This document shows, piece after piece, positions 26,693-59,821 of a DNA stretch of 64,000 nucleotides. This DNA comes from an uncultured Candidatus Saccharibacteria bacterium (GTDB lineage: Bacteria; Patescibacteriota; Minisyncoccia; UBA6257; 1-14-0-10-44-23), in NCBI GenBank assembly GCA_964549935.1, contig CAZJVT010000001.1, positions 27,922 to 91,921 on the forward strand, given 5' to 3'. Position 1 is the stretch's first letter, and the number at the start of each line of letters is the position of its first letter. Both the position numbers and the translations under genes were made by a program. The notes under the pieces are model-generated. The model had not been told where the DNA came from, searched no databases, and saw nothing but the letters and a program-made list of their open reading frames with translations.

Positions 26693-28380
<1,688 letters not shown>

Positions 28381-45371: not shown

Positions 45372-45443
45372 GTCTCCGTAGTTCAACGGATAGAATATCT
45401 CCCTCCGAAGGAGATGATTGTGGTTCGATTCCACACGGGGACA
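45372..45443 (+). tRNA. tRNA-Arg (anticodon CCG)
   Basis: Manual cloverleaf fold: 7-bp acceptor stem with one G·U, D-arm, anticodon stem-loop with loop CTCCGAA, T-arm GTGG-TTCGATT-CCAC, discriminator A. CCA is not encoded. Confidence 0.75.
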
Positions 45444-45466
45444 CAGCGTGGTATTATTGCGAAACT

Positions 45467-51176: not shown

Positions 51177-51279
51177 GTGTAGACCTCGAGTATGTGACAT
51201 TGCTTGCGAGTCGCTTGTCGAAGCGGTCGCAGCTGTAAAGAGCATTTCGCAAAGCTCCTTGCAGCTGCGACCTATTTGA

Positions 51280-51607
51280 GGTGGAGTTGGGGATATCGAA
51301 ATCCCGTCCAAAAGTTTCTGCAATAACAGTCTACAAGCTTAGGATCGAAACAAGTTCGAAGCGAATGAACTCTAAGTTTTAGTGATGCGCGTAGAGTTCA
51401 ATCGGCGCATCCTTATTCCCAGATATAACACCAGTATTCCGACTATGGGAAGTTATCGGACTGATGGCTTACGCTAGGCGTAGGCTAAAGCAAAATTGCT
51501 CTGACGAGTAAAGTTGGCAGTTTATGATTTTTGGATCAGATTTACGAGTTAATCCTGCTCGGCTTGCATGTTATTACAAAGAACGATTGTCGAAGCCTGG
51601 CAACCCC
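51280..51607 (-). ncRNA. ssrA: tmRNA (ssrA)
   Basis: Minus-strand 5' GGGGTTGCCAGGCTTCGACAATCG... and 3' ...GGACGGGATTTCGATATCCCCAACTCCACC. G3·U70 acceptor pair, T-arm GGATTTCGATATCC. Tag reading frame GCC AAC TTT ACT CGT CAG AGC AAT TTT GCT TTA GCC TAC GCC TAG at 51518-51474. Immediately downstream of smpB. Confidence 0.7.
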
Positions 51608-51608
51608 G

Positions 51609-52070
51609 TTAGCGCTCACCGCGCATCTCCCGGACATCCGCTTTCTTTTTAAGAACTTCGCGTTTGTCCGACTTCTTGCGGCGGCGGGCGATACCGAACA
51701 ATATCTTAATTCGGCTGCCTTTATTATAAACTTTTATAGGCACTATTGTCAACTTTTGGTGCAGGCCGTCTAAAATCTTCTCAATCTCGTTTTTATGCAG
51801 CAGGAGCTGTCGAGGGCGGTTTTGGTCGTAATCGGGCTGATTAGCGGGCTGGTAGGGCGGGATATCGGCTCCTACGAGGTAGGCAGAGCCACCACGGACC
51901 AGGATTTGGCTGCCGGCAATCGTGATGCGGCCGTTTTGGATAGACTTAACTTCCGGTCCGAGCAGCGCTAAACCGGCCTCGAAGGTGTCCATCATCTCGA
52001 AGTCAAAATTGGCGCGGCGATTTTCCGCGAAGGTCCCGGTTTTGAGTTGCTTCTTTTCCATATCCTTCAT
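51609..52070 (-). CDS. smpB: SsrA-binding protein SmpB
   Basis: ENRRANFDF...GSEVKSI...KLLLHK motifs. 153 aa. Confidence 0.85.
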   Translation of the reverse strand: MKDMEKKQLKTGTFAENRRANFDFEMMDTFEAGLALLGPEVKSIQNGRITIAGSQILVRGGSAYLVGADIPPYQPANQPDYDQNRPRQLLLHKNEIEKILDGLHQKLTIVPIKVYNKGSRIKILFGIARRRKKSDKREVLKKKADVREMRGER

Positions 52071-52107: not shown

Positions 52108-53814
52108 ATGCAGGAGTTACTCCAAAAGAAAATTGCTGAAACGCTTGGCGTGCCGCTTGAGCAGGTGAGTATCACCGTGCCGGAGATCGCCGAGTTCGGG
52201 CACTACTCGACTAACGTCGCGATGCGCTTAGCCAAAGATGCTAAAAAGCCGCCGCTTGTTTTAGCCGAGGAGTTTGCGCAAAAGCTGAAGGCTTCAGCTC
52301 CGGAGATGTTCGCAGATGTAAAAGCCGTGAAGCCGGGTTTTATTAATTTTTGGATTTCAGAAAAGTTTTTGCAGGAGCAGTTCGAAAAAACGCTTCACGC
52401 TTCACGCTCAACGCTACACGCGGGAGAGAAAGTCATCGTCGAGTACGCCTCGTGCAACATCGCTAAGCCGATGCACGTCGGCCATCTGCGTTCGACCATT
52501 ATCGGCGACGCCCTTGCGAATATTCACGCCTACCTGGGTTACGACGTTATCCGCTGGAACTACATCGGCGACTGGGGGACGCAGTTTGGAAAGTTAATAA
52601 CGGCTTACAAGCTCTGGGGTAAAAAAGAAGATATCGAAAAAGATCCGATTGGCGCAATGCTGGAGCTCTATGTCCGTGTCAGCGCAGAGGCGAAGGAGAA
52701 TCCTGCCTTAGACGAGCAGGCGCGAGCCGAGTTTAAAAAGCTGGAGGAGGGCGACGCCGAAAACCGCAAGCTGCTGGAGTGGTTTAAGGCCGAGTCGCTG
52801 GTTGCGTTTAACACACTCTTTGCCCGTCTGGGCGTGAAGTTTGATATTGAGTACGGAGAGGCGTTTTACGAAAAGGCCCTAGCCGGTGTTAATGCCGAAC
52901 TTGCAGAGAAGAAGCTTTCGGAGCAGAGCGAAGGAGCGGTCATCGTGAACTTAGACAAGTTTAAATTGCCGCCGGCGCTCGTCCAGAAAGGGGACGGAGC
53001 CAGTTTGTATCTCACGCGTGACATCGCCAATCTTGAGTATCGCTTAAAGGAATACAAGCCGGCCAAGATTTTACTCGTCGTCGCTAATCAGCAGGCACTT
53101 CACTTCGAACAGCTCTTTGCCGTCGCGCAGCTGCTTGGACTCACAGGCTCTGAATTGCAGCACGTGAAGTTTGGTATGGTGCTTGGCCCGGACGGTAAGA
53201 AGTTTGCGACTCGCGAAGGGAAGTTGATTAAGCTCGAGGAGCTGCTTGATGAGGTCACGGCGAAGGCGATGGCGGTTGTGTCGCGCAACAACGTGGAGAT
53301 GCCCGCTGATCAGGCCAAGGCTATCGCAGAGATGGTTGGCATCGGCGCGCTCAAATACAATGACTTAAAAGAAAATCGTAACTCGGACATCACTTTCAAC
53401 TGGGAGGCGATGCTGGATTTGCATGGCGACTCTGCACCGTATTTGCAGTATGCCGCGGTGCGGTTTATGAGTATCGTTAAAAAAGTTGAAGAAAAGTGGG
53501 GAGCATCTCAAGGCGGAAAGCAAGCAATTTGGTTTGAGTGGTTAGATGATGACCTAAAATTTGGGTTGATGAAAAAAATCCTGGATTTCAATGACGTCGT
53601 CGTGTTGAGCGCATCAACTTATTACACAAGTCATCTTGCGAAGTATCTGTTTGAGCTCGCGAAACTCGGTAATCAGTATTATGAGAAATACCGAATTCTT
53701 GAAGATCAAGAGCAGGGTCGTCGTGGAGGCCGAGTTGAGCTTCTTAGGTCAGTAGCCAAGACGATTGAAACCGGCTTGAACCTGTTGGGGATTAAGGTGC
53801 CGGAGCGGATTTGA
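52108..53814 (+). CDS. argS: arginine--tRNA ligase
   Basis: Class I HIGH variant SCNIAKPMHVGHLRSTIIGD and a C-terminal DALR anticodon-binding region. 568 aa. Confidence 0.85.
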   Translation: MQELLQKKIAETLGVPLEQVSITVPEIAEFGHYSTNVAMRLAKDAKKPPLVLAEEFAQKLKASAPEMFADVKAVKPGFINFWISEKFLQEQFEKTLHASRSTLHAGEKVIVEYASCNIAKPMHVGHLRSTIIGDALANIHAYLGYDVIRWNYIGDWGTQFGKLITAYKLWGKKEDIEKDPIGAMLELYVRVSAEAKENPALDEQARAEFKKLEEGDAENRKLLEWFKAESLVAFNTLFARLGVKFDIEYGEAFYEKALAGVNAELAEKKLSEQSEGAVIVNLDKFKLPPALVQKGDGASLYLTRDIANLEYRLKEYKPAKILLVVANQQALHFEQLFAVAQLLGLTGSELQHVKFGMVLGPDGKKFATREGKLIKLEELLDEVTAKAMAVVSRNNVEMPADQAKAIAEMVGIGALKYNDLKENRNSDITFNWEAMLDLHGDSAPYLQYAAVRFMSIVKKVEEKWGASQGGKQAIWFEWLDDDLKFGLMKKILDFNDVVVLSASTYYTSHLAKYLFELAKLGNQYYEKYRILEDQEQGRRGGRVELLRSVAKTIETGLNLLGIKVPERI

Positions 53815-53899: not shown

Positions 53900-53932
53900 G
53901 CCGCCAGCTGATTGGGCGGCAATTTTATTTCT
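53900..53932 (+). terminator. hairpin + U-run between argS and ileS (terminator/attenuator-like)
   Basis: gccgccAGCTGATTGggcggc followed by aattttatttct directly before the ileS ATG. Confidence 0.35.
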
Positions 53933-56900
53933 ATGTTAAAAAATCTAAAGGAGTTCAAGTTGCCGGAGATAGAGGAGCAGGTGCTTAAGTTTTGGCAGGA
54001 GCACTCGATTTTTAAGCAGACGCTCGCGAAGAATAAAGGTAAAAAGAAGTACGTTTTCTTTGAGGGCCCGCCGACGGCTAACGGTATGCCGGGCATCCAC
54101 CACCAGCTCGCGCGTAGTTTTAAGGACATCATGCCGCGCTTTAAGGCGATGCAGGGTTACGACGTGCCGCGTAAGGCCGGTTGGGACACGCACGGTCTGC
54201 CGGTGGAGCTGCAGGCCGAGAAGGAGCTTGGGTTTAAAGGTAAGCAGGATATCGAAAAGTTTGGTATCGCCGAGTTTAATGCAAAGTGTAAGGAGCTTGT
54301 TTGGAAGTACCGCAGCGAGTTTGAAGGGGCGACGAATCGCCTCGGTTTTTGGCTCGACCTCGAGCACCCGTACGTAACTTACGAAAACAGCTTCATCGAG
54401 TCACTTTGGTGGGTCTACGCCCGCATCAACAAGCAGGGCTACTTAAAGAAGATGCACAAGATCCTGCCGTGGTGCACCCGCTGCGGTACTGCCTTGTCCT
54501 CGCACGAGTTGGCGCAGGGTTATAAAGAGGTGGAAGACGCTTCGGTGTATGTGAAGTTTAAAGTAAAGAAGGGACAGAAAATAGGTTCGTTTAAAGCGGA
54601 CGACAAAACATACATCTTAAGCTGGACGACCACGCCGTGGACATTACCGGGCAACTTGGCGCTCGCGGTTGGGGAGAAGATCGAATACGGCGCCGTTGAG
54701 GTTTCCGGCGAGCTCTTGATTCTCGCATCCGCTCGTTTCCCTAGCGTATTTCCCGATCCGGCGCTCTACGTTCTACGCTCTACGCTTAACGGATCCGACC
54801 TCGTCGGTCTCGAGTACGCTTCGCTCTTTGACGTGAAGTCGCTTAAGAGTAAGAAGTCTTACCACGTCTACCCGGCTGATTTCGTTACGACGACGGACGG
54901 TACCGGCGTGGTGCACACCGCCGTCATGTACGGTGAAGATGACTACGCACTGGGCAAAAAGATCGGCCTGCCGCAACACCACACCGTCGCTGAAACCGGA
55001 CACTTTACCAAAGAGGTGAAAGGCCTCGCCGGGGCGTACGCAAAATCCAAGACGACTGAAGAAAAGATTTTCGAACACCTTAAGGCTAAAAACTTCCTGC
55101 TGCGCACGGAGCCTTACAAGCACGAGTACCCGCACTGTTGGCGCTGCGGTACGCCCGTACTTTACTACGCGCGTGACTCTTGGTTTATCGAGATGAGTAA
55201 GCTGCGCAGCCAGCTGCTTAAGAACAACGACACGATTAACTGGACACCGTCGCACATTAAAGAGGGGAGATTCGGTGAGTGGCTCCGCGAGGTTAAGGAC
55301 TGGTCCATTAGCCGTGACCGCTACTGGGGCACCCCGCTGCCTATCTGGCAGAGTAAGGACGGCAAGCAGACGATGGTTGTTTCGAGTTTGGCGGACTTTA
55401 AAAAGTACGGGCACCACAGCGGCAACCGTTACTTCGGCATGCGCCACGGAGAGGCGACGCACAATTTGGTTAAGAAAAACGCCGGCGGCAAAGAAACTGC
55501 CGCGCTCCGTTCAGAGCTAACACCGAAGGGGATTATGGAGGCGCAGGCAGCGGCAAAGGCACTGAAGAAAAACAAGATCGACGTCATCATTGCCTCGCCG
55601 TATTACCGCACGCAGCAAACAGCGGCAATCGTTGCCAAGGAACTCAAAAAGAAAGTTGTATACGACAAGCGTCTTGGCGAGATTAATACCGGCATCTTTA
55701 ACTGGCAATCAATGGAGGCTTACTACGCCTGGTTCCCTAATAAGAAAGATCGCTGGGCGACTGCTCCGGAGAAGGCTGAAAATTGGAATGCAGTTCGTGC
55801 TCGTGTCGTTGAGGCGATGCGGAGCTTCGACAAGAAGTATAAGAATAAAAACATTCTCATCATTAGCCATGGAGATCCGCTCTGGATTTTAGATGGAGCG
55901 ATGCGCGGCTTTGCCGACCATGAGTACGTCGAAGAGGCATTTTACCCGGAGATCGCGACTCCCTTTGAGCTCGAACCGCCAGTATTGCCGTTTGATGATG
56001 GAGGGAGGATGGACCTGCACCGGCCGTATGTCGACCGCATTGTTTTGCGCGATCCGAAGACGAAAAAAGAGCTGCACCGCGTTAAAGACGTCGGCGATGT
56101 TTGGTTTGACTCGGGCGCGATGCCGTATGCTTCGCACAACTTCCCGTTTGCCCAGGGAGTAAAGCGTGAGGACGCGCAGAACGACAAGGCGGTCGCCGAG
56201 GCCTTTAAAAAGATTGATTTTCCGGCGGATTATATCGCGGAAGGCGTAGACCAGACCCGCGGTTGGTTTTACACCCTGCTGGCTATCTCGACCACGCTCG
56301 GACTGCCGGCCGCTTACAAAAATGTCATCTCTGTCGGCATCATTGGCGACAAGAACGGGCAGAAGATGAGTAAGAGTAAAGGTAACATTGTCGATCCGAT
56401 GATGATTATGAATAAGTACGGCGCCGATGTGCTGCGTTGGTACTTCTACACGGTCAACGACGCCGGTGATGCGAAAAACTTCGACGAGGCCGACCTCGGC
56501 AAAGTTACGCGTCGCTTCGTCATGATTCTATATAACTCTTTCTTGTTCTGGAGCTCGTATGCAAAGGGAGGCACCGCTAAAGACGCTTACAAGTCCGAAA
56601 ACGTTTTGGACAAGTGGATTTTGGCGCGGCTGCACGAGGTCATCGCCGAGGTGACGCGCATGCTCAACCGTTACGAGATTGGCAAGGCGGCGCTCCTGAT
56701 TGAGCAGTTTACCGATGACATGAGCCGTTGGTACATCCGCCGCAGCCGCGACCGATTCCAGAGCAACGCCCGCGGGGGAGACAACGAGGCGGACTTCTTG
56801 TCGGGCAGCGCGACGCTCCACGAGGTCCTAATGCAGCTTTCCAAGCTCTTGGCGCCCTTTATGCCGTTTTTCAGCGACGCGCTGTATAAGTCACTTGGCG

Positions 56901-57463
56901 GGCAGCAGGATTCAGTACACCTAGAGGAGTTTCCGGTGGGCGACGCGACGGTGGCAAACGCCGATCTGATCAGCGGTATGGCCAAGGTGCGCGCCGCTGC
57001 AGGAGCTGCTTTAGCTGCTCGTACCGAAGTCGGTATTAAGGTCAGGCAGCCATTGCTCAGCTGGAAAATGAAAGACATTAGTTTGCAGGGGCAGGAGCAA
57101 CTTATAGCTATTCTAAAAGACGAAATCAACGTTAAAGAGATATTATTTGATTCTTCTCTTGCTGTGGACAATGAGCTCAACGCGACAATTACGCAGCAGC
57201 TTAAAGAGGAGGGCACTGTGCGTGAGTTAGTTCGTGCGATTCAAGGTCTGCGCGCGGAAGCCGGGTACGCGATGGGCGACAGCATTGTACTGATGCTTGC
57301 CGGCAGTCAGGAGTTTAGTGATCTTATCCAGCGCCACTCGGTGAACTTAAAAAAGTCAGTGAATGCTAAGACGATTGAATTAAAGAAAGGGGAGAAGGTG
57401 GACGTGCAGCTGGATACAAAAGTTGAGGAGTCTCCGGTTTGGATTGGTTTGCGGAAGATTTAA
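53933..57463 (+). CDS. ileS: isoleucine--tRNA ligase (type 2) with inserted histidine-phosphatase (PGAM-like) domain
   Basis: PPTANGMPGIHH (HIGH), KMSKSKGN, editing domain and a DVWFDSGAMPYAS motif. A ~200-aa RHGE...ISHGD histidine-phosphatase domain is inserted at ~55411-56012, between WQSKDGK and DLHRPYVD. Confidence 0.85.
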   Translation: MLKNLKEFKLPEIEEQVLKFWQEHSIFKQTLAKNKGKKKYVFFEGPPTANGMPGIHHQLARSFKDIMPRFKAMQGYDVPRKAGWDTHGLPVELQAEKELGFKGKQDIEKFGIAEFNAKCKELVWKYRSEFEGATNRLGFWLDLEHPYVTYENSFIESLWWVYARINKQGYLKKMHKILPWCTRCGTALSSHELAQGYKEVEDASVYVKFKVKKGQKIGSFKADDKTYILSWTTTPWTLPGNLALAVGEKIEYGAVEVSGELLILASARFPSVFPDPALYVLRSTLNGSDLVGLEYASLFDVKSLKSKKSYHVYPADFVTTTDGTGVVHTAVMYGEDDYALGKKIGLPQHHTVAETGHFTKEVKGLAGAYAKSKTTEEKIFEHLKAKNFLLRTEPYKHEYPHCWRCGTPVLYYARDSWFIEMSKLRSQLLKNNDTINWTPSHIKEGRFGEWLREVKDWSISRDRYWGTPLPIWQSKDGKQTMVVSSLADFKKYGHHSGNRYFGMRHGEATHNLVKKNAGGKETAALRSELTPKGIMEAQAAAKALKKNKIDVIIASPYYRTQQTAAIVAKELKKKVVYDKRLGEINTGIFNWQSMEAYYAWFPNKKDRWATAPEKAENWNAVRARVVEAMRSFDKKYKNKNILIISHGDPLWILDGAMRGFADHEYVEEAFYPEIATPFELEPPVLPFDDGGRMDLHRPYVDRIVLRDPKTKKELHRVKDVGDVWFDSGAMPYASHNFPFAQGVKREDAQNDKAVAEAFKKIDFPADYIAEGVDQTRGWFYTLLAISTTLGLPAAYKNVISVGIIGDKNGQKMSKSKGNIVDPMMIMNKYGADVLRWYFYTVNDAGDAKNFDEADLGKVTRRFVMILYNSFLFWSSYAKGGTAKDAYKSENVLDKWILARLHEVIAEVTRMLNRYEIGKAALLIEQFTDDMSRWYIRRSRDRFQSNARGGDNEADFLSGSATLHEVLMQLSKLLAPFMPFFSDALYKSLGGQQDSVHLEEFPVGDATVANADLISGMAKVRAAAGAALAARTEVGIKVRQPLLSWKMKDISLQGQEQLIAILKDEINVKEILFDSSLAVDNELNATITQQLKEEGTVRELVRAIQGLRAEAGYAMGDSIVLMLAGSQEFSDLIQRHSVNLKKSVNAKTIELKKGEKVDVQLDTKVEESPVWIGLRKI

Positions 57464-57500
57464 AAAGGTGAGACCCCGGCCGGAGCCAGGGTCTCGTACC
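57464..57500. terminator. bidirectional terminator
   Basis: gagaccc-cggccggagcca-gggtctc hairpin, with an A-run on the plus side and a T-run on the minus side. Confidence 0.5.
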
Positions 57501-57534
57501 TCTGGTCGGCGCGGGGTCGGCGCTAGGGGAAGCC

Positions 57535-57717
57535 TTAGCCGCCCGGCTTCTTCTTCGGCGGGGGCGGAAGGGGTTCGAAGTACCGGTCCTTGTGCGGCGT
57601 CCCCGTGGGAGTCGTGGAGAGATCGCCGAGATCGAGCCCAGCCGTCTTGATCGGCTTCTTGCTCTCCGCAGGCCAGGGGACTCCTGCGCCGTCTTCGGGG
57701 GAATTCGTGTGACCCAT
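57535..57717 (-). CDS. small hypothetical protein (60 aa) on GC-rich islet with strong SD
   Basis: AGGAGG sits 9 nt before the ATG. Sequence MGHTNSPEDGAGVPWPAE...PPPPKKKPGG. Very high GC3. Confidence 0.3.
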   Translation of the reverse strand: MGHTNSPEDGAGVPWPAESKKPIKTAGLDLGDLSTTPTGTPHKDRYFEPLPPPPKKKPGG

Positions 57718-57837
57718 GCTTCGATGCCTCCTGTCAGATTTGCTCCCTCCCCGAAACACTTCGGGGCACCAAAACAATTTGCCATAGCTATGCAAAATGT
57801 CAAACCCCGCAAAAGCGGGGTTTGAAGTTGAGGTCAG

Positions 57838-58839
57838 TTAATTATGTACGCAGTATTTACCTCGACTATCAAGATTCGCGCAGAGGGTGTAGACGAAAGC
57901 GTCCCTTTTCTCGTCGTAGCGAAGCACATACTCATATTCTTTACCGGTTATCGGGTCGAGTGTGTCTTCTGTTTCACCGCCGCCCCATAGATTTTTTAGA
58001 GCAGCGAGTTGTGCAACCGGCTTGCTTCGGTTGAGCATCATTTGTAAAGCATTTAAATCGAACATCCGGACGTAGTCTATCGGTGGTACGCCATGTAGTC
58101 GTGCTTCTTCGAGGGTCAGTTGAGTAACGGCTTTCGCGCTCATAAAATCTTTATATCGCTCAGGTAGCTGGCGTTTCAATTCGTCCAACATGTTTTCATT
58201 GACGCGCTGCTTGTATTTCTCCGTTGCTTTAGCCTGTTCTGACTTGCTGGGGGCAATTACCCATGCGAATGGTTGGCTATATTCTCCATTATAAAAACCG
58301 CCAAGCCGACGACGAATTATTCCCCATTTAACTACGTCGGTATGCGATGGCCCGTGTGTCCAGCAACCGAGACCAAGCGGGCCACATTCTAAAAAGGTTT
58401 GAACGCCTCTTTCTAGCTTGTATCCACTCGGAGAGGGCTGTTTCTGTCTGGCATCGCTTACTGTAAAGTTCTGTGCTTCTGTCCAGGAGATCGGCTCAAA
58501 GGTATTCGAGCGCATATTATAAAGTAATAGCCGCGGGTTTCTCATTAACGTCGCGCTTAGTACTTTTGATTCGTCGCGGGTTATCTTGTTATTTTCGATG
58601 GTGTACGTTGCGCCACCGTAGGCGTCATTATTTAGAGAATAAATAATACTCTCCGGGAAGGCAAAGAGACTGAAAGGGCGAATGTCGGTAGTGAAGGTTA
58701 AAAAACATAGTGCTAATACTAATAAAATACGTATAACCCCTTTTAGGCTTGATTTTGGCTTAGCACTTAGGGCTTTGTCGGTGCCAGTTTCCGCTTTTGG
58801 CTCAATGGTGTCGGCGAGATTTTTGGCAGGCTCTAACAT
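57838..58839 (-). CDS. hypothetical membrane-anchored protein (333 aa)
   Basis: N-terminal transmembrane helix (IRILLVLALCFLTF). No recognisable domain. Confidence 0.45.
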   Translation of the reverse strand: MLEPAKNLADTIEPKAETGTDKALSAKPKSSLKGVIRILLVLALCFLTFTTDIRPFSLFAFPESIIYSLNNDAYGGATYTIENNKITRDESKVLSATLMRNPRLLLYNMRSNTFEPISWTEAQNFTVSDARQKQPSPSGYKLERGVQTFLECGPLGLGCWTHGPSHTDVVKWGIIRRRLGGFYNGEYSQPFAWVIAPSKSEQAKATEKYKQRVNENMLDELKRQLPERYKDFMSAKAVTQLTLEEARLHGVPPIDYVRMFDLNALQMMLNRSKPVAQLAALKNLWGGGETEDTLDPITGKEYEYVLRYDEKRDAFVYTLCANLDSRGKYCVHN

Positions 58840-58840
58840 A

Positions 58841-59821
58841 TTAGGCGATTAGCCCGACTTTCTGGTAGGCCTCTTTGAGTTTAGCGCTGGCAACCTTGTT
58901 GGCCTTTTTGGCGCCGGAGGCGAAGACTTTCAGGGCCTTTTTCGGGTCTTTCACTAGCTCCATTTTCTTTTTACGAAACGGGGCTAGAGCGTTAACGATG
59001 ACCTCGGCGACCGCAGCTTTGAACTGGCCGTAGTTTTTGCCGGCAAACTCTGTTTCAAGAGCGGCGACGGTCTTGCCCGAGAGGGTGCTGGTAATCAAGA
59101 GGAGGTTGCTGATGCCGGGTTTGTTTGCCTCATCAAACTTAATTTCGCTGCCGGAGTCGGTAACGGCGCTCATAATTTTCTTTTTAATCATCTCCGGTTC
59201 GTCGTCTAAAAACAGGCAGCCGCTCGGTTGTGACTTGCTCATCTTCTTCATCGGGTCGGCGAGTGACATCACGCGGGGGAGCTCGGTGTGCTTTGCCTTT
59301 GGTTCGACGAAGGTTTCACCAAAACGGCCATTAAACTTTCGAGCGATGGTGCGCGTGAGTTCGAGGTGTTGGTCCTGGTCATTACCAACTGGCACAAAAG
59401 CGGCGCCGTAGAGAAGAATGTCGGCGGCCATTAGGACGGGGTAGGTAAAGAGACCCGCGTTAGTCTCCATATGGTCAGATTTGTCTTTGTATTGAGTCAT
59501 TCGCTCAAGTTCTCCCATGGGTGTGATCGTGTTAAAAATCCAAGCAAGCTCGCTGTGTGCCGGAATGGCGGATTGGATAAAGAGGGTAGACTTGCGCGGG
59601 TTGAGTCCGGCGGCGAGGTAGCTGGCGGCTAGGTCAGCAATTTGCGCGCGCTTTTCCTCCGGCGTGTAGCCTTCGGTAAGCGAGTGTAGGTCGGCAATGA
59701 AAAAGTACGGCTCGTATTCGCCGCTGTTTTGCAAATCAACAAAGTTTTTGAGAGCTCCGAGGTAGTTGCCGATGTGGAGTCGTCCTGACGGCTGGATACC
59801 GGAGATAATGACGGGTTTCAT
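58841..59821 (-). CDS. trpS: tryptophan--tRNA ligase
   Basis: ISGIQPSGRLHIGNYLGA (HIGH) and KMSKS motifs. 326 aa. Confidence 0.85.
   Translation of the reverse strand: MKPVIISGIQPSGRLHIGNYLGALKNFVDLQNSGEYEPYFFIADLHSLTEGYTPEEKRAQIADLAASYLAAGLNPRKSTLFIQSAIPAHSELAWIFNTITPMGELERMTQYKDKSDHMETNAGLFTYPVLMAADILLYGAAFVPVGNDQDQHLELTRTIARKFNGRFGETFVEPKAKHTELPRVMSLADPMKKMSKSQPSGCLFLDDEPEMIKKKIMSAVTDSGSEIKFDEANKPGISNLLLITSTLSGKTVAALETEFAGKNYGQFKAAVAEVIVNALAPFRKKKMELVKDPKKALKVFASGAKKANKVASAKLKEAYQKVGLIA

Follow-up and report, generated by a model that had tools for sequence, protein, structure and literature searches.

Why does an isoleucyl-tRNA synthetase (IleRS) of a candidate-phyla bacterium carry an entire phosphatase in its interior? 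The question is raised by a window of 64,000 nucleotides (the whole stretch of DNA analysed here, positions 27,922 to 91,921 of contig CAZJVT010000001.1, assembly GCA_964549935.1, from an uncultured Candidatus Saccharibacteria bacterium), in which the gene ileS (53933..57463, + strand, 1176 aa from its ATG) contains an inserted histidine-phosphatase domain of the Pfam family His_Phos_1 (PF00300). Few enzymes are as conserved or as thoroughly studied as the tRNA synthetases, and internal insertions of whole, catalytically intact enzymes into them are rare, the ancient editing domain being the classic case. An earlier reading of the letters, here called the original prediction, had placed a complete branch-1 histidine-phosphatase domain inside IleRS, and profile, catalytic residues and fold bear this out. 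Our answer, to which we give a probability of roughly 55%, is that the insert would be an accessory phosphohydrolase that is co-produced with a class Ia synthetase and held rigidly on it, and that its substrate would be a small diffusible phospho-compound.

We begin with the host gene. The mechanical open reading frame (ORF) spans 53912..57463 (+) with a TTG start at 53912 and forms one uninterrupted frame; the ATG at 53933 is the family-consensus start, matching "MLKxLKxFxLPExEE". Below, residues are numbered from the codon at 53930, and numbering from the ATG is obtained by subtracting 1. The Pfam scan of the product returned tRNA-synt_1 in two halves (384 bits) with His_Phos_1 between them, followed by Anticodon_1 and DUF5915, and the protein passed the NCBIfam equivalog TIGR00392 ileS with 857.3 bits (cut-off 621.4). 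The nearest solved structures are those of the type-2 enzymes (IleRS2) 8c8w and 1ILE, which rank ahead of IleRS1; the bit scores are 742-748 against the Priestia megaterium IleRS2 entries and 705 against 1ILE. A full-length AlphaFold2 model (predicted local distance difference test, pLDDT, 91.9; predicted template-modelling score, pTM, 0.85) matched the IleRS2 structures in Foldseek with target-normalised template-modelling (TM) scores of 0.81-0.92.

The N-terminal part (53933..55417, +), which includes the CP1 editing domain and the first zinc knuckle besides the first half of the catalytic core, aligns with residues 12-496 to 8c8w 11-480 and holds the editing motifs WTTTPWTLPGN and GTGVVHTAVMYGEDDY; the editing-domain signatures GTGVVH..GEDDY and WTTTPWT were likewise found. 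The C-terminal part (56006..57460, +) aligns with residues 693-1112 to 8c8w 485-891 and contains the segment DLHRPYVD, a second, degenerate knuckle, DVWFDSG, KMSKS with its lysine K812 (codon beginning at 56363, +), the anticodon-binding domain and the DUF5915 region. Because the HIGH-equivalent signature, KMSKS and the editing motifs are all intact, the chemistry of IleRS itself is probably unchanged by the insert. The class I signature is present in the swapped form G-I-H-H (aa 55-58; 54092..54103, +) in place of H-x-G-H. This form is common to the whole family, since P54, H57 and H58 do not vary among 81 homologues and the conservation of G55 is at least 90%. The GXHH signature confers mupirocin hyper-resistance on type-2 IleRS (PMC10485003). 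Acquired-resistance enzymes of the MupA/MupB kind were considered as well and rejected (scores 753 and 724, cut-off 1900), the relationship extending only to common membership of IleRS2.

At the two knuckle positions the window protein departs from most of its relatives. The first reads S-K-D-G (55352..55363, +) and the second D-P-K-T (56051..56062, +), where most homologues have C-x-x-C. In the alignment, Cys occupies columns 475 and 478 in 101/121 and 98/121 sequences (window S475 and G478) and columns 708 and 711 in 106/121 (window D708 and T711). All four cysteines are kept in about 100/121 sequences and are replaced in the window protein together with some 13-15 close relatives, so that zinc binding at this place is apparently dispensable in the sub-lineage.

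The insert lies between these two knuckle halves, at the tip of the knuckle loop. In the alignment to 8c8w, query residue 496 corresponds to chain residue 480 and query residue 693 to chain residue 485, so that about 196 residues replace about 4. The domain (aa 497-692; 55418..56005, +), delimited by Pfam, alignment and model, comprises a whole free-standing protein of ~190 aa plus a C-terminal linker of ~12 aa. The catalytic core of the 8c8w enzyme of P. megaterium comprises residues 40-168 and 513-632 (PMC10485003), which puts the insertion point in the connective-peptide region, shortly before the core resumes. Placement between GTPLPIW and DLHRPYVD of a type-2 IleRS, as proposed originally, is thus confirmed by the 8c8w alignment, which also shows that the domain does not correspond to a known IleRS insertion domain. 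The contrast drawn there between ~25 and ~200 residues was a fair approximation (221 residues from W473 to D695, against ~30-45 in uninterrupted relatives). The proposed coordinates 55411-56012 located the insert correctly, with a start that was one base out of frame; 55412-56011 translates cleanly.

Next, we asked what kind of enzyme has been inserted. PF00300 scored 105.2 bits in the full protein (E = 4e-30) and 110 for the insert alone, at a cut-off of 21.7, so the domain scan that had been suggested is positive for a phosphatase fold. Conservation was read from 121 aligned sequences, the window protein and its 120 best homologues, whose identity ranges from 100% down to ~50%. The motifs quoted earlier are both present: GMRHGEATHN contains R505 and H506, the RHG pair (55442..55447, +; invariant in 121/121) whose histidine is the predicted phospho-accepting nucleophile, and ISHGDPLW contains H647, the second catalytic histidine (55868..55870, +; 121/121). 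R560, the second phosphate-binding arginine within SPYYRTQQTA (55607..55609, +), is invariant too, and E584 within RLGEINTG (55679..55681, +), the predicted proton donor, is Glu in 113/121 and Asp in 8/121. R505, H506, R560, E617, R625 and H647 are conserved in every sequence and N512 in 101/121, while most other positions of the insert vary freely. On this pattern, the catalytic apparatus is intact and under purifying selection.

A model of the domain alone (pLDDT 82.7) matched the small phosphatases PspA, PhoE/YhfR, Rv2419c GpgP, 9mmh and CobC at TM 0.65-0.74 with probability 1.00; true mutase structures fit less well, at a target-normalised TM of ~0.5. Both linkers score pLDDT 85-90 in the full-length model, which together with its overall confidence suggests a fixed, docked orientation of the domain on the synthetase. 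Every characterised subfamily that we compared fell short of its cut-off. For the cofactor-dependent phosphoglycerate mutases (dPGM), the scores were 75.2 against 225 (dPGM_arch), 28.5 against 81.7 (TIGR01258 pgm_1) and 50.6 against 261 (GpmB), and the domain of ~190 aa is smaller than true mutases, which have ~230-250 aa and a C-terminal tail. Phosphoserine phosphatase (PspA 69.6, cut-off 350; PSP1 70.3, cut-off 277), the alpha-ribazole phosphatase CobC (ribazole_cobC 69.3, cut-off 162.9) and the phosphohistidine phosphatase SixA (34.6 bits, cut-off 74.5) were rejected on the same grounds, as was the bifunctional RNase H/acid phosphatase PRK07238, the top NCBIfam match of the insert (76.5 bits, cut-off 326). 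With no characterised subfamily model reaching its cut-off, the domain is to be taken as a generic small histidine phosphatase of no recognisable specificity. Profile and model together identify the insert as a complete small histidine phosphatase of the PhoE/PspA/CobC-like group, with its catalytic set intact and predicted to be competent, and not as a mutase.

The trivial answer would be an artefact, be it a chimeric assembly, an overlooked intein or a mobile element inserted recently, and we found nothing in its favour. The gene is a single uninterrupted ORF, an NCBI contig of 357 kb encodes an identical protein, and the independent homologues, of which there are more than 120, were obtained from several sources. 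No Hint, intein or homing-endonuclease family appeared in the Pfam scan of the ileS product, and the check for flanking repeats at the insert gave only short chance repeats. Codon usage is native, the distance between insert and body (0.456) being below the median of equal-sized body chunks (0.501). In addition, the composition resembles that of the host gene, as had been stated (insert GC 0.517 and GC at third codon positions 0.602; rest of ileS 0.53 and 0.67-0.70). ORF, Pfam scan, homologues, repeat check and codon usage together exclude an artefact, a reading we have practically discarded. The insertion is real, old and selected. An established rather than recent fusion had been proposed, and all 120 of the 120 best full-length homologues do combine PF00300 with the IleRS domains. 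Their source names include Harrisonbacteria, Jorgensenbacteria, Wolfebacteria, Paceibacterota, Minisyncoccia and Parcubacteria. A survey of related genomes, recommended along with the original prediction, thus found the fusion widely, and it is common in Parcubacteria/Paceibacteria-type Patescibacteria.

To place the domain among its relatives, the insert alone was searched exhaustively against 1.84 billion cluster representatives, which gave 4823 matches at E <= 1e-3. Among the best 150 of these, 87 are embedded in IleRS and about 60 are free-standing proteins of ~190 aa. Three single cases complete the picture, namely an arginyl-tRNA synthetase (ArgRS) with a C-terminal His_Phos domain (P0204), a Sua5-His_Phos protein (P0146) and a His_Phos-PUA_2-ATP sulfurylase fusion (P0245). 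A recurrent Sua5 fusion family was considered and dropped, the protein being a singleton. The P0245 fusion (L003:8001-9707, +) has three cluster members from three sources and lies within a cluster of glycosyltransferase and sulfotransferase genes; no APS kinase was found within 8 kb of it.

The neighbourhood of ileS links the free-standing and the embedded forms. In the window, smpB (51609..52070, -) is the conserved left border of a block smpB(-) / argS / [phosphatase] / ileS; argS (52108..53814, +; Arg_tRNA_synt_N, tRNA-synt_1d, DALR_1) follows directly upstream of ileS, and the phosphatase lies inside ileS. For the closest free-standing homologue (P0127), the gene lies between argS and an uninterrupted ileS of 938 aa in the order smpB(-), argS, His_Phos, ileS ... 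recO, the phosphatase gene overlapping ileS by 10 nt. At the P0204 locus the same block is found with the phosphatase fused to the C-terminus of ArgRS, in two independent assemblies and in the interior of a 70-kb contig.

We then scanned genomes, one per species, with a 7-sequence alignment of free-standing homologues as query and found 353 relatives; the counts of arrangements cover the best 80 loci, which were classified by tblastn and stop-to-stop ORFs. The named genomes among them are all Patescibacteria, several of these names being automated and possibly unreliable. IleRS contains the domain in 29 of the 80 loci, all in one ORF of ~1125-1250 aa where complete; in 36 a separate ORF of ~200 aa immediately precedes an uninterrupted ileS, in many cases right behind argS. 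In 3 further loci ileS lies one gene further downstream of the separate phosphatase, and 12 have no IleRS within the flank. None of the 80 has both an inserted and an upstream copy. Among the 12 loci without a flanking IleRS, the phosphatase gene follows argS in one (L070), overlaps the end of an NTP_transferase gene in three (L044, L050, L057) and precedes a MazG gene in two (L071, L084). The uninterrupted IleRSs have an ordinary knuckle at the insertion site, C-x2-C, ~30-45 residues and C-x2-C. Altogether, linkage of the phosphatase to class Ia synthetases is tight and recurrent, and its free and fused forms are interchangeable. 

Two observations on these loci may be added. A tandem pair of free-standing phosphatase genes was seen at a contig end (L080:6412-7585, +) and could represent a duplication intermediate giving rise to an inserted copy. 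Besides that, ten loci (L016, L019, L028, L029, L035, L036, L045, L053, L072, L086) encode deep-branching uninterrupted IleRSs, all with an upstream phosphatase gene. They read 'HSPHRPWID...DVGNPW' where 'DLHRPYID...D.WFDSG' stands elsewhere, and form a distinct IleRS subtype in the same syntenic block.

How often did the domain enter IleRS? The history was read from the IleRS body, with insert and knuckle interior removed, in a neighbour-joining tree of 52 sequences and 892 columns; a 173-column tree of the phosphatase domain was too weak to use. The inserted IleRSs are not monophyletic, and the split of inserted against all others appears in 0/100 bootstraps. A single insertion event is ruled out, this bipartition being missing from the tree. 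Two inserted sequences (L082, L088) branch beside a large separate-gene clade, and two with a separate gene (L063, L040) fall within or next to the main inserted clade. The junctions are nevertheless alike in all inserted lineages: on the N-side, the knuckle helix is followed by N-x-Y-F-x-L/M-R-H-G, and on the C-side G-E-L-R-K-I is followed by a linker of ~12 residues and D-L/F-H-R-P-Y-I/V-D. The very N- and C-termini of the free-standing proteins, "NxYFxLRHG" and "GELRKL", both recur inside the inserts of relatives, which means that a whole gene product was transplanted in frame. The phosphatase thus appears to have moved repeatedly between neighbouring gene, inserted domain and ArgRS C-terminal fusion. 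This pattern may stem from insertion on several occasions, from duplication followed by differential loss, or from ileS alleles being transferred and recombined. The repeated switching between neighbour gene and inserted domain suggests that the covalent link is not essential for function.

Independent captures are found in a second lineage. One IleRS (P0241) bears two His_Phos domains at positions other than that of the window protein. The IleRSs related to it have 1200-1860 aa and are recorded under the names Gracilibacteria, Peregrinibacteria and Peribacteria; His_Phos_1 is present in most. Insertion sites were mapped against an uninterrupted relative (P0352). Site A (P0352 498-504; window aa 493-695) is the window's own site, site B (515-522; window aa 707-714) is the tip of the second knuckle, site C (550-556; window aa 742-770) is the loop before ADFIAEG, and site D (677-682; window aa about 886-890) is the linker before the anticodon-binding domain. 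Up to three His_Phos copies occur per protein, and the Arg/His/Asn/Arg/Glu/His set is kept in essentially all of the ~119 inserts at all four sites. Some of these IleRSs also bear a GNAT domain, an AAA_33/zeta-type P-loop kinase, a serine hydrolase, or a DUF559 or IS200-like transposase domain. In one (P0351, aa 566-759), a HAD-superfamily phosphatase occupies site C and no His_Phos is present, which to judge from the domain content may be a non-homologous replacement of the same activity.

A valyl-tRNA synthetase (ValRS) of 1337 aa also carries His_Phos_1 (98.6 bits), in a genome whose IleRS is uninterrupted. Its insertion, after WGHQIPVW and before DTLDTWFSS, is at the site homologous to that of the window protein. 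In this ValRS (L099:17319-21332, +), the insert has ~410 aa, of which the phosphatase covers aa 511-663; about 220 residues (roughly aa 690-915) between the phosphatase and DTLDTWFSS have no Pfam match. A metagenome scan with a generic pattern returned only ordinary ValRS, so that one case is verified.

Further observations were made around the second-lineage genes. DUF559 (Vsr-like endonuclease fold) and IS200-like Y1 transposase domains are present in frame in three proteins (P0385, aa 294-399; P0333, aa 572-675; P0388, aa 346-470), which hints that mobile-element proteins may become fixed internal domains of IleRS and may bear on the origin of insertions. A YbaK-like tRNA_edit gene (L090:8109-8585, +) lies directly after an uninterrupted second-lineage ileS. 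At another locus, a small serine-hydrolase gene (L091:8332-8841, -) stands beside an uninterrupted ileS and belongs to the same family as a domain inserted elsewhere (P0336).

What, then, could the phosphatase do for the synthetase? As accessory phosphohydrolase of a class Ia synthetase, it would take the phosphoryl group onto H506, with R505, R560, N512 and H647 holding that group and E584 protonating the leaving group, and its substrate would be a small, diffusible phosphorylated compound connected with aminoacylation or the handling of nucleotides. A coupling of phosphatase activity to tRNA charging or editing, as put forward originally, may exist. Precise positioning by the synthetic site is probably not required, given that free and fused forms interchange. 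Inorganic pyrophosphate (PPi) or a nucleotide product leads the single candidates, because every partner or tight neighbour releases PPi (IleRS, ValRS, ArgRS, Sua5, ATP sulfurylase, NTP_transferase and MazG); taken on its own, this choice of substrate is an unlikely guess. Only tentatively would we go further and see in the domain a dedicated and hitherto unrecognised cofactor enzyme of class Ia synthetases in candidate-phyla bacteria, serving for instance phospho-product clearing, tRNA-end healing or dephosphorylation of the enzyme. It would then be the commonest of a wider, undescribed set of catalytic modules (GNAT, kinase, HAD, serine hydrolase) grafted onto IleRS. If this were true, a dedicated phosphatase would perform a step that other bacteria carry out differently or not at all.

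Several points weigh against an accessory phosphohydrolase of this kind. Sequence alone names no substrate, and the PPi pattern was spotted post hoc, with the Sua5 fusion as a singleton. We know of no branch-1 histidine phosphatase with an established role as inorganic pyrophosphatase. Conventional enzymes are on record in these lineages, namely a proton-pumping pyrophosphatase (H+-PPase) in a Parcubacterium (PMC5220378) and a conventional pyrophosphatase in Peribacteria (PMC4736985), so the insert is not needed as sole pyrophosphatase. No family-I pyrophosphatase was found by tblastn and motif scan of 1.08 Mb, a result that is uninformative since the loci scanned are syntenic. The conserved gene order could in part be inherited synteny. 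Finally, the presence of unrelated domains in second-lineage IleRSs, from GNAT, P-loop kinase and serine hydrolase to DUF559 and the IS200-like transposase, means that IleRS may simply tolerate insertions.

This last point leads to the competitor that we take most seriously, even if we consider it improbable: a neutral hitch-hiker, in which a housekeeping phosphatase unrelated to aminoacylation, ancestrally a neighbour of ileS, was dropped by local duplications and rearrangements into tolerant loops of a large and constitutively produced host protein and persisted because the fusion is harmless and guarantees expression in a tiny genome. The variety of domains at the same second-lineage sites (GNAT, AAA_33/zeta-type kinase, serine hydrolase, HAD, DUF559 and Y1 transposase) would be expected on such an account, as would the free interchange of free and inserted states. 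The serine-hydrolase family found both beside and inside ileS argues that the step from neighbour to insert is a general one, and the ArgRS fusion is explicable by loss of a stop codon between adjacent genes, whose gaps are 5-20 nt in many loci. Passive tolerance fits less well with a domain of the same kind being caught at four or more sites of IleRS and again in ValRS, in separate lineages, with catalytic residues retained even in two- and three-copy proteins and with a non-homologous HAD phosphatase standing in for His_Phos in one IleRS. Moreover, 68/80 loci are tied to ileS across deeply diverged IleRS clades, and among the best 150 of the 4823 relatives 87 sit within IleRS and none within other large proteins. 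If, on the contrary, the domain is simply the organism's own cofactor-dependent phosphoglycerate mutase or phosphoserine phosphatase, moonlighting after a chance fusion, then its best sequence and fold matches in the PDB, which are PspA-type phosphoserine phosphatases, and the automated name '2,3-bisphosphoglycerate-dependent phosphoglycerate mutase' of some free-standing relatives would make sense. The scores of dPGM_arch, pgm_1, PspA and PSP1 far under their cut-offs, a length of ~190 aa that is short of a mutase and its C-terminal tail, and the poorer fit of mutase structures make this explanation hardly credible. These lineages mostly lack amino-acid biosynthesis. A cofactor-independent mutase has been reported in a Parcubacterium (PMC5220378).

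Two further proposals give the phosphatase a specific task at the synthetase. Healing of tRNA ends, by removal of a 3'- or 2'-phosphate or by opening and removal of a 2',3'-cyclic phosphate at the acceptor end of damaged or immature tRNA, on behalf of the synthetase or the CCA-adding enzyme, would suit carriers that are tRNA-binding class Ia synthetases. In some IleRSs, His_Phos or HAD is joined with an AAA_33-type P-loop kinase, and kinase and phosphatase within one protein recall the polynucleotide kinase-phosphatase layout. The ATP-sulfurylase fusion adjoins a sulfotransferase gene and would fit a specificity for adenosine-3'-phosphate (pAp-like), which is chemically near a 3'-phosphorylated A76. 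We consider end healing very unlikely, however: we know of no branch-1 histidine phosphatase acting on RNA ends, small-molecule phosphatases make up all of the nearest structures, the free-standing form occurs untethered to any tRNA-binding protein, and neither an RNA ligase nor RtcB was seen in the P0127 and P0204 neighbourhoods. A protective or regulatory role would have the domain undo phosphorylation that inhibits the synthetase, such as that by kinase toxins, or inactivate a phosphorylated inhibitor, as part of a small-molecule-modifying toolkit (GNAT, kinase, hydrolase) on an often-attacked antibiotic target. The co-occurrence of these domains on IleRS speaks for it, the GXHH signature with its tie to mupirocin hyper-resistance hints at past inhibitor pressure, and SixA, PGAM5 and Sts-1 are protein phosphatases within the histidine-phosphatase family. 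The SixA model, on the other side, stays below its cut-off (34.6 bits, cut-off 74.5), the PADLOC defence models gave no match, no kinase-toxin gene was seen in the P0127 and P0204 neighbourhoods, and no natural IleRS inhibitor with a phosphomonoester is known to us, which leaves protection a very remote prospect. Weighing all of these, we favour an accessory phosphohydrolase of the synthetase acting on a small phospho-compound.

The window holds some further features around the block. A transfer-messenger RNA (tmRNA) gene (51279-51607, -; Rfam RF00023, 105 bits) directly adjoins smpB; ARAGORN missed it and listed only tRNA-Arg(CCG) at 45372-45444. The spacer 3' of ileS (57464-57837) reaches a GC content of 0.64, against ~0.5 nearby, and opens with a terminator-like hairpin immediately behind the stop codon of ileS. 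A Pro/Gly/Lys-rich ORF of 60 aa (57535-57717, -), preceded by an AGGAGG ribosome-binding site, lies in the spacer too; the scans gave no Pfam family for this ORF and no Rfam family over the region. An ORF of 333 aa without Pfam match (57838-58839, -) lies between ileS and trpS (58841-59821, -).

The significance of the locus lies in the recurrence of the coupling, which is found as operon partner, as C-terminal fusion and as insertion at four or more IleRS sites and in ValRS, over much of the candidate phyla radiation, most of whose genes have no known function. We read this recurrence as a strong comparative-genomics signal of functional coupling. It raises the question of which phospho-compound a synthetase must have removed, and it marks IleRS in these lineages as a hot spot for accessory catalytic domains. 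Since neighbour, fused and inserted forms share identical boundaries, they offer a natural series for the study of domain insertion into essential proteins. The original prediction knew of no characterised IleRS enzyme with this architecture. None of the solved or characterised IleRSs has the phosphatase domain, and neither full-text searches nor the catalogue paper of AARS Online turned up any account of it. Some JGI entries are auto-named 'isoleucyl-tRNA synthetase/phosphohistidine phosphatase SixA/...'. Taken with the public sequences and an NCBI model for GNAT-bearing IleRS, these names make the architecture visible in databases, and we found no analysis of it. Automated labels such as 'isoleucine--tRNA ligase' or 'class I tRNA ligase family protein' make the feature invisible to users of annotation.

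Compared with known systems, the window protein shares with IleRS2 (P. megaterium 8c8u-8c9d, Thermus thermophilus 1ILE) the scaffold, editing domain, KMSKS, anticodon-binding domain and DUF5915 region, and with hyper-resistant IleRS2 the natural swapped G-x-H-H. It differs in having a phosphatase of ~196 residues where 8c8w has ~4 residues between the knuckle halves, and in lacking the knuckle cysteines. The insert has the fold of the small branch-1 phosphatases PhoE/YhfR (1ebb, 1h2e), PspA (4ij5), CobC (6nru, 6e4b), Rv2419c GpgP (4pz9) and the riboflavin-pathway enzyme 9mmh, and resembles them in size (~190-210 aa) and in the catalytic set Arg-His-(Asn)-Arg-Glu-His. However, it is only 22-26% identical to them, has its own 'NxYFxLRHG' start and 'SHGDPLW' motif, and lives in or beside a tRNA synthetase. 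A curated precedent for an IleRS with an extra catalytic domain is NCBIfam NF040702 'ileS_w_GNAT'; the IleRSs with GNAT that we found frequently combine it with His_Phos and share the insertion sites, whereas the window protein has no GNAT domain in Pfam, scores 334 bits against a cut-off of 1999 and belongs to a different lineage. PRK07238 (Rv2228c/RnhC type) likewise joins a CobC-like histidine phosphatase to a nucleic-acid enzyme, but as an end-to-end fusion to RNase H, unlike the insertion into a synthetase described here; we know of no established functional link between its parts. Altogether, the architecture is a case of accessory-domain accretion on a tRNA synthetase. Eukaryotic tRNA synthetases accrete domains such as GST, WHEP, EMAPII and UNE, which are mostly non-catalytic and terminal, and the yeast TFIIIC subunit tau55 has a histidine-phosphatase domain, a precedent in tRNA-related machinery. 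The case described here differs from these in the internal and repeated insertion of a catalytically intact enzyme, in bacteria.

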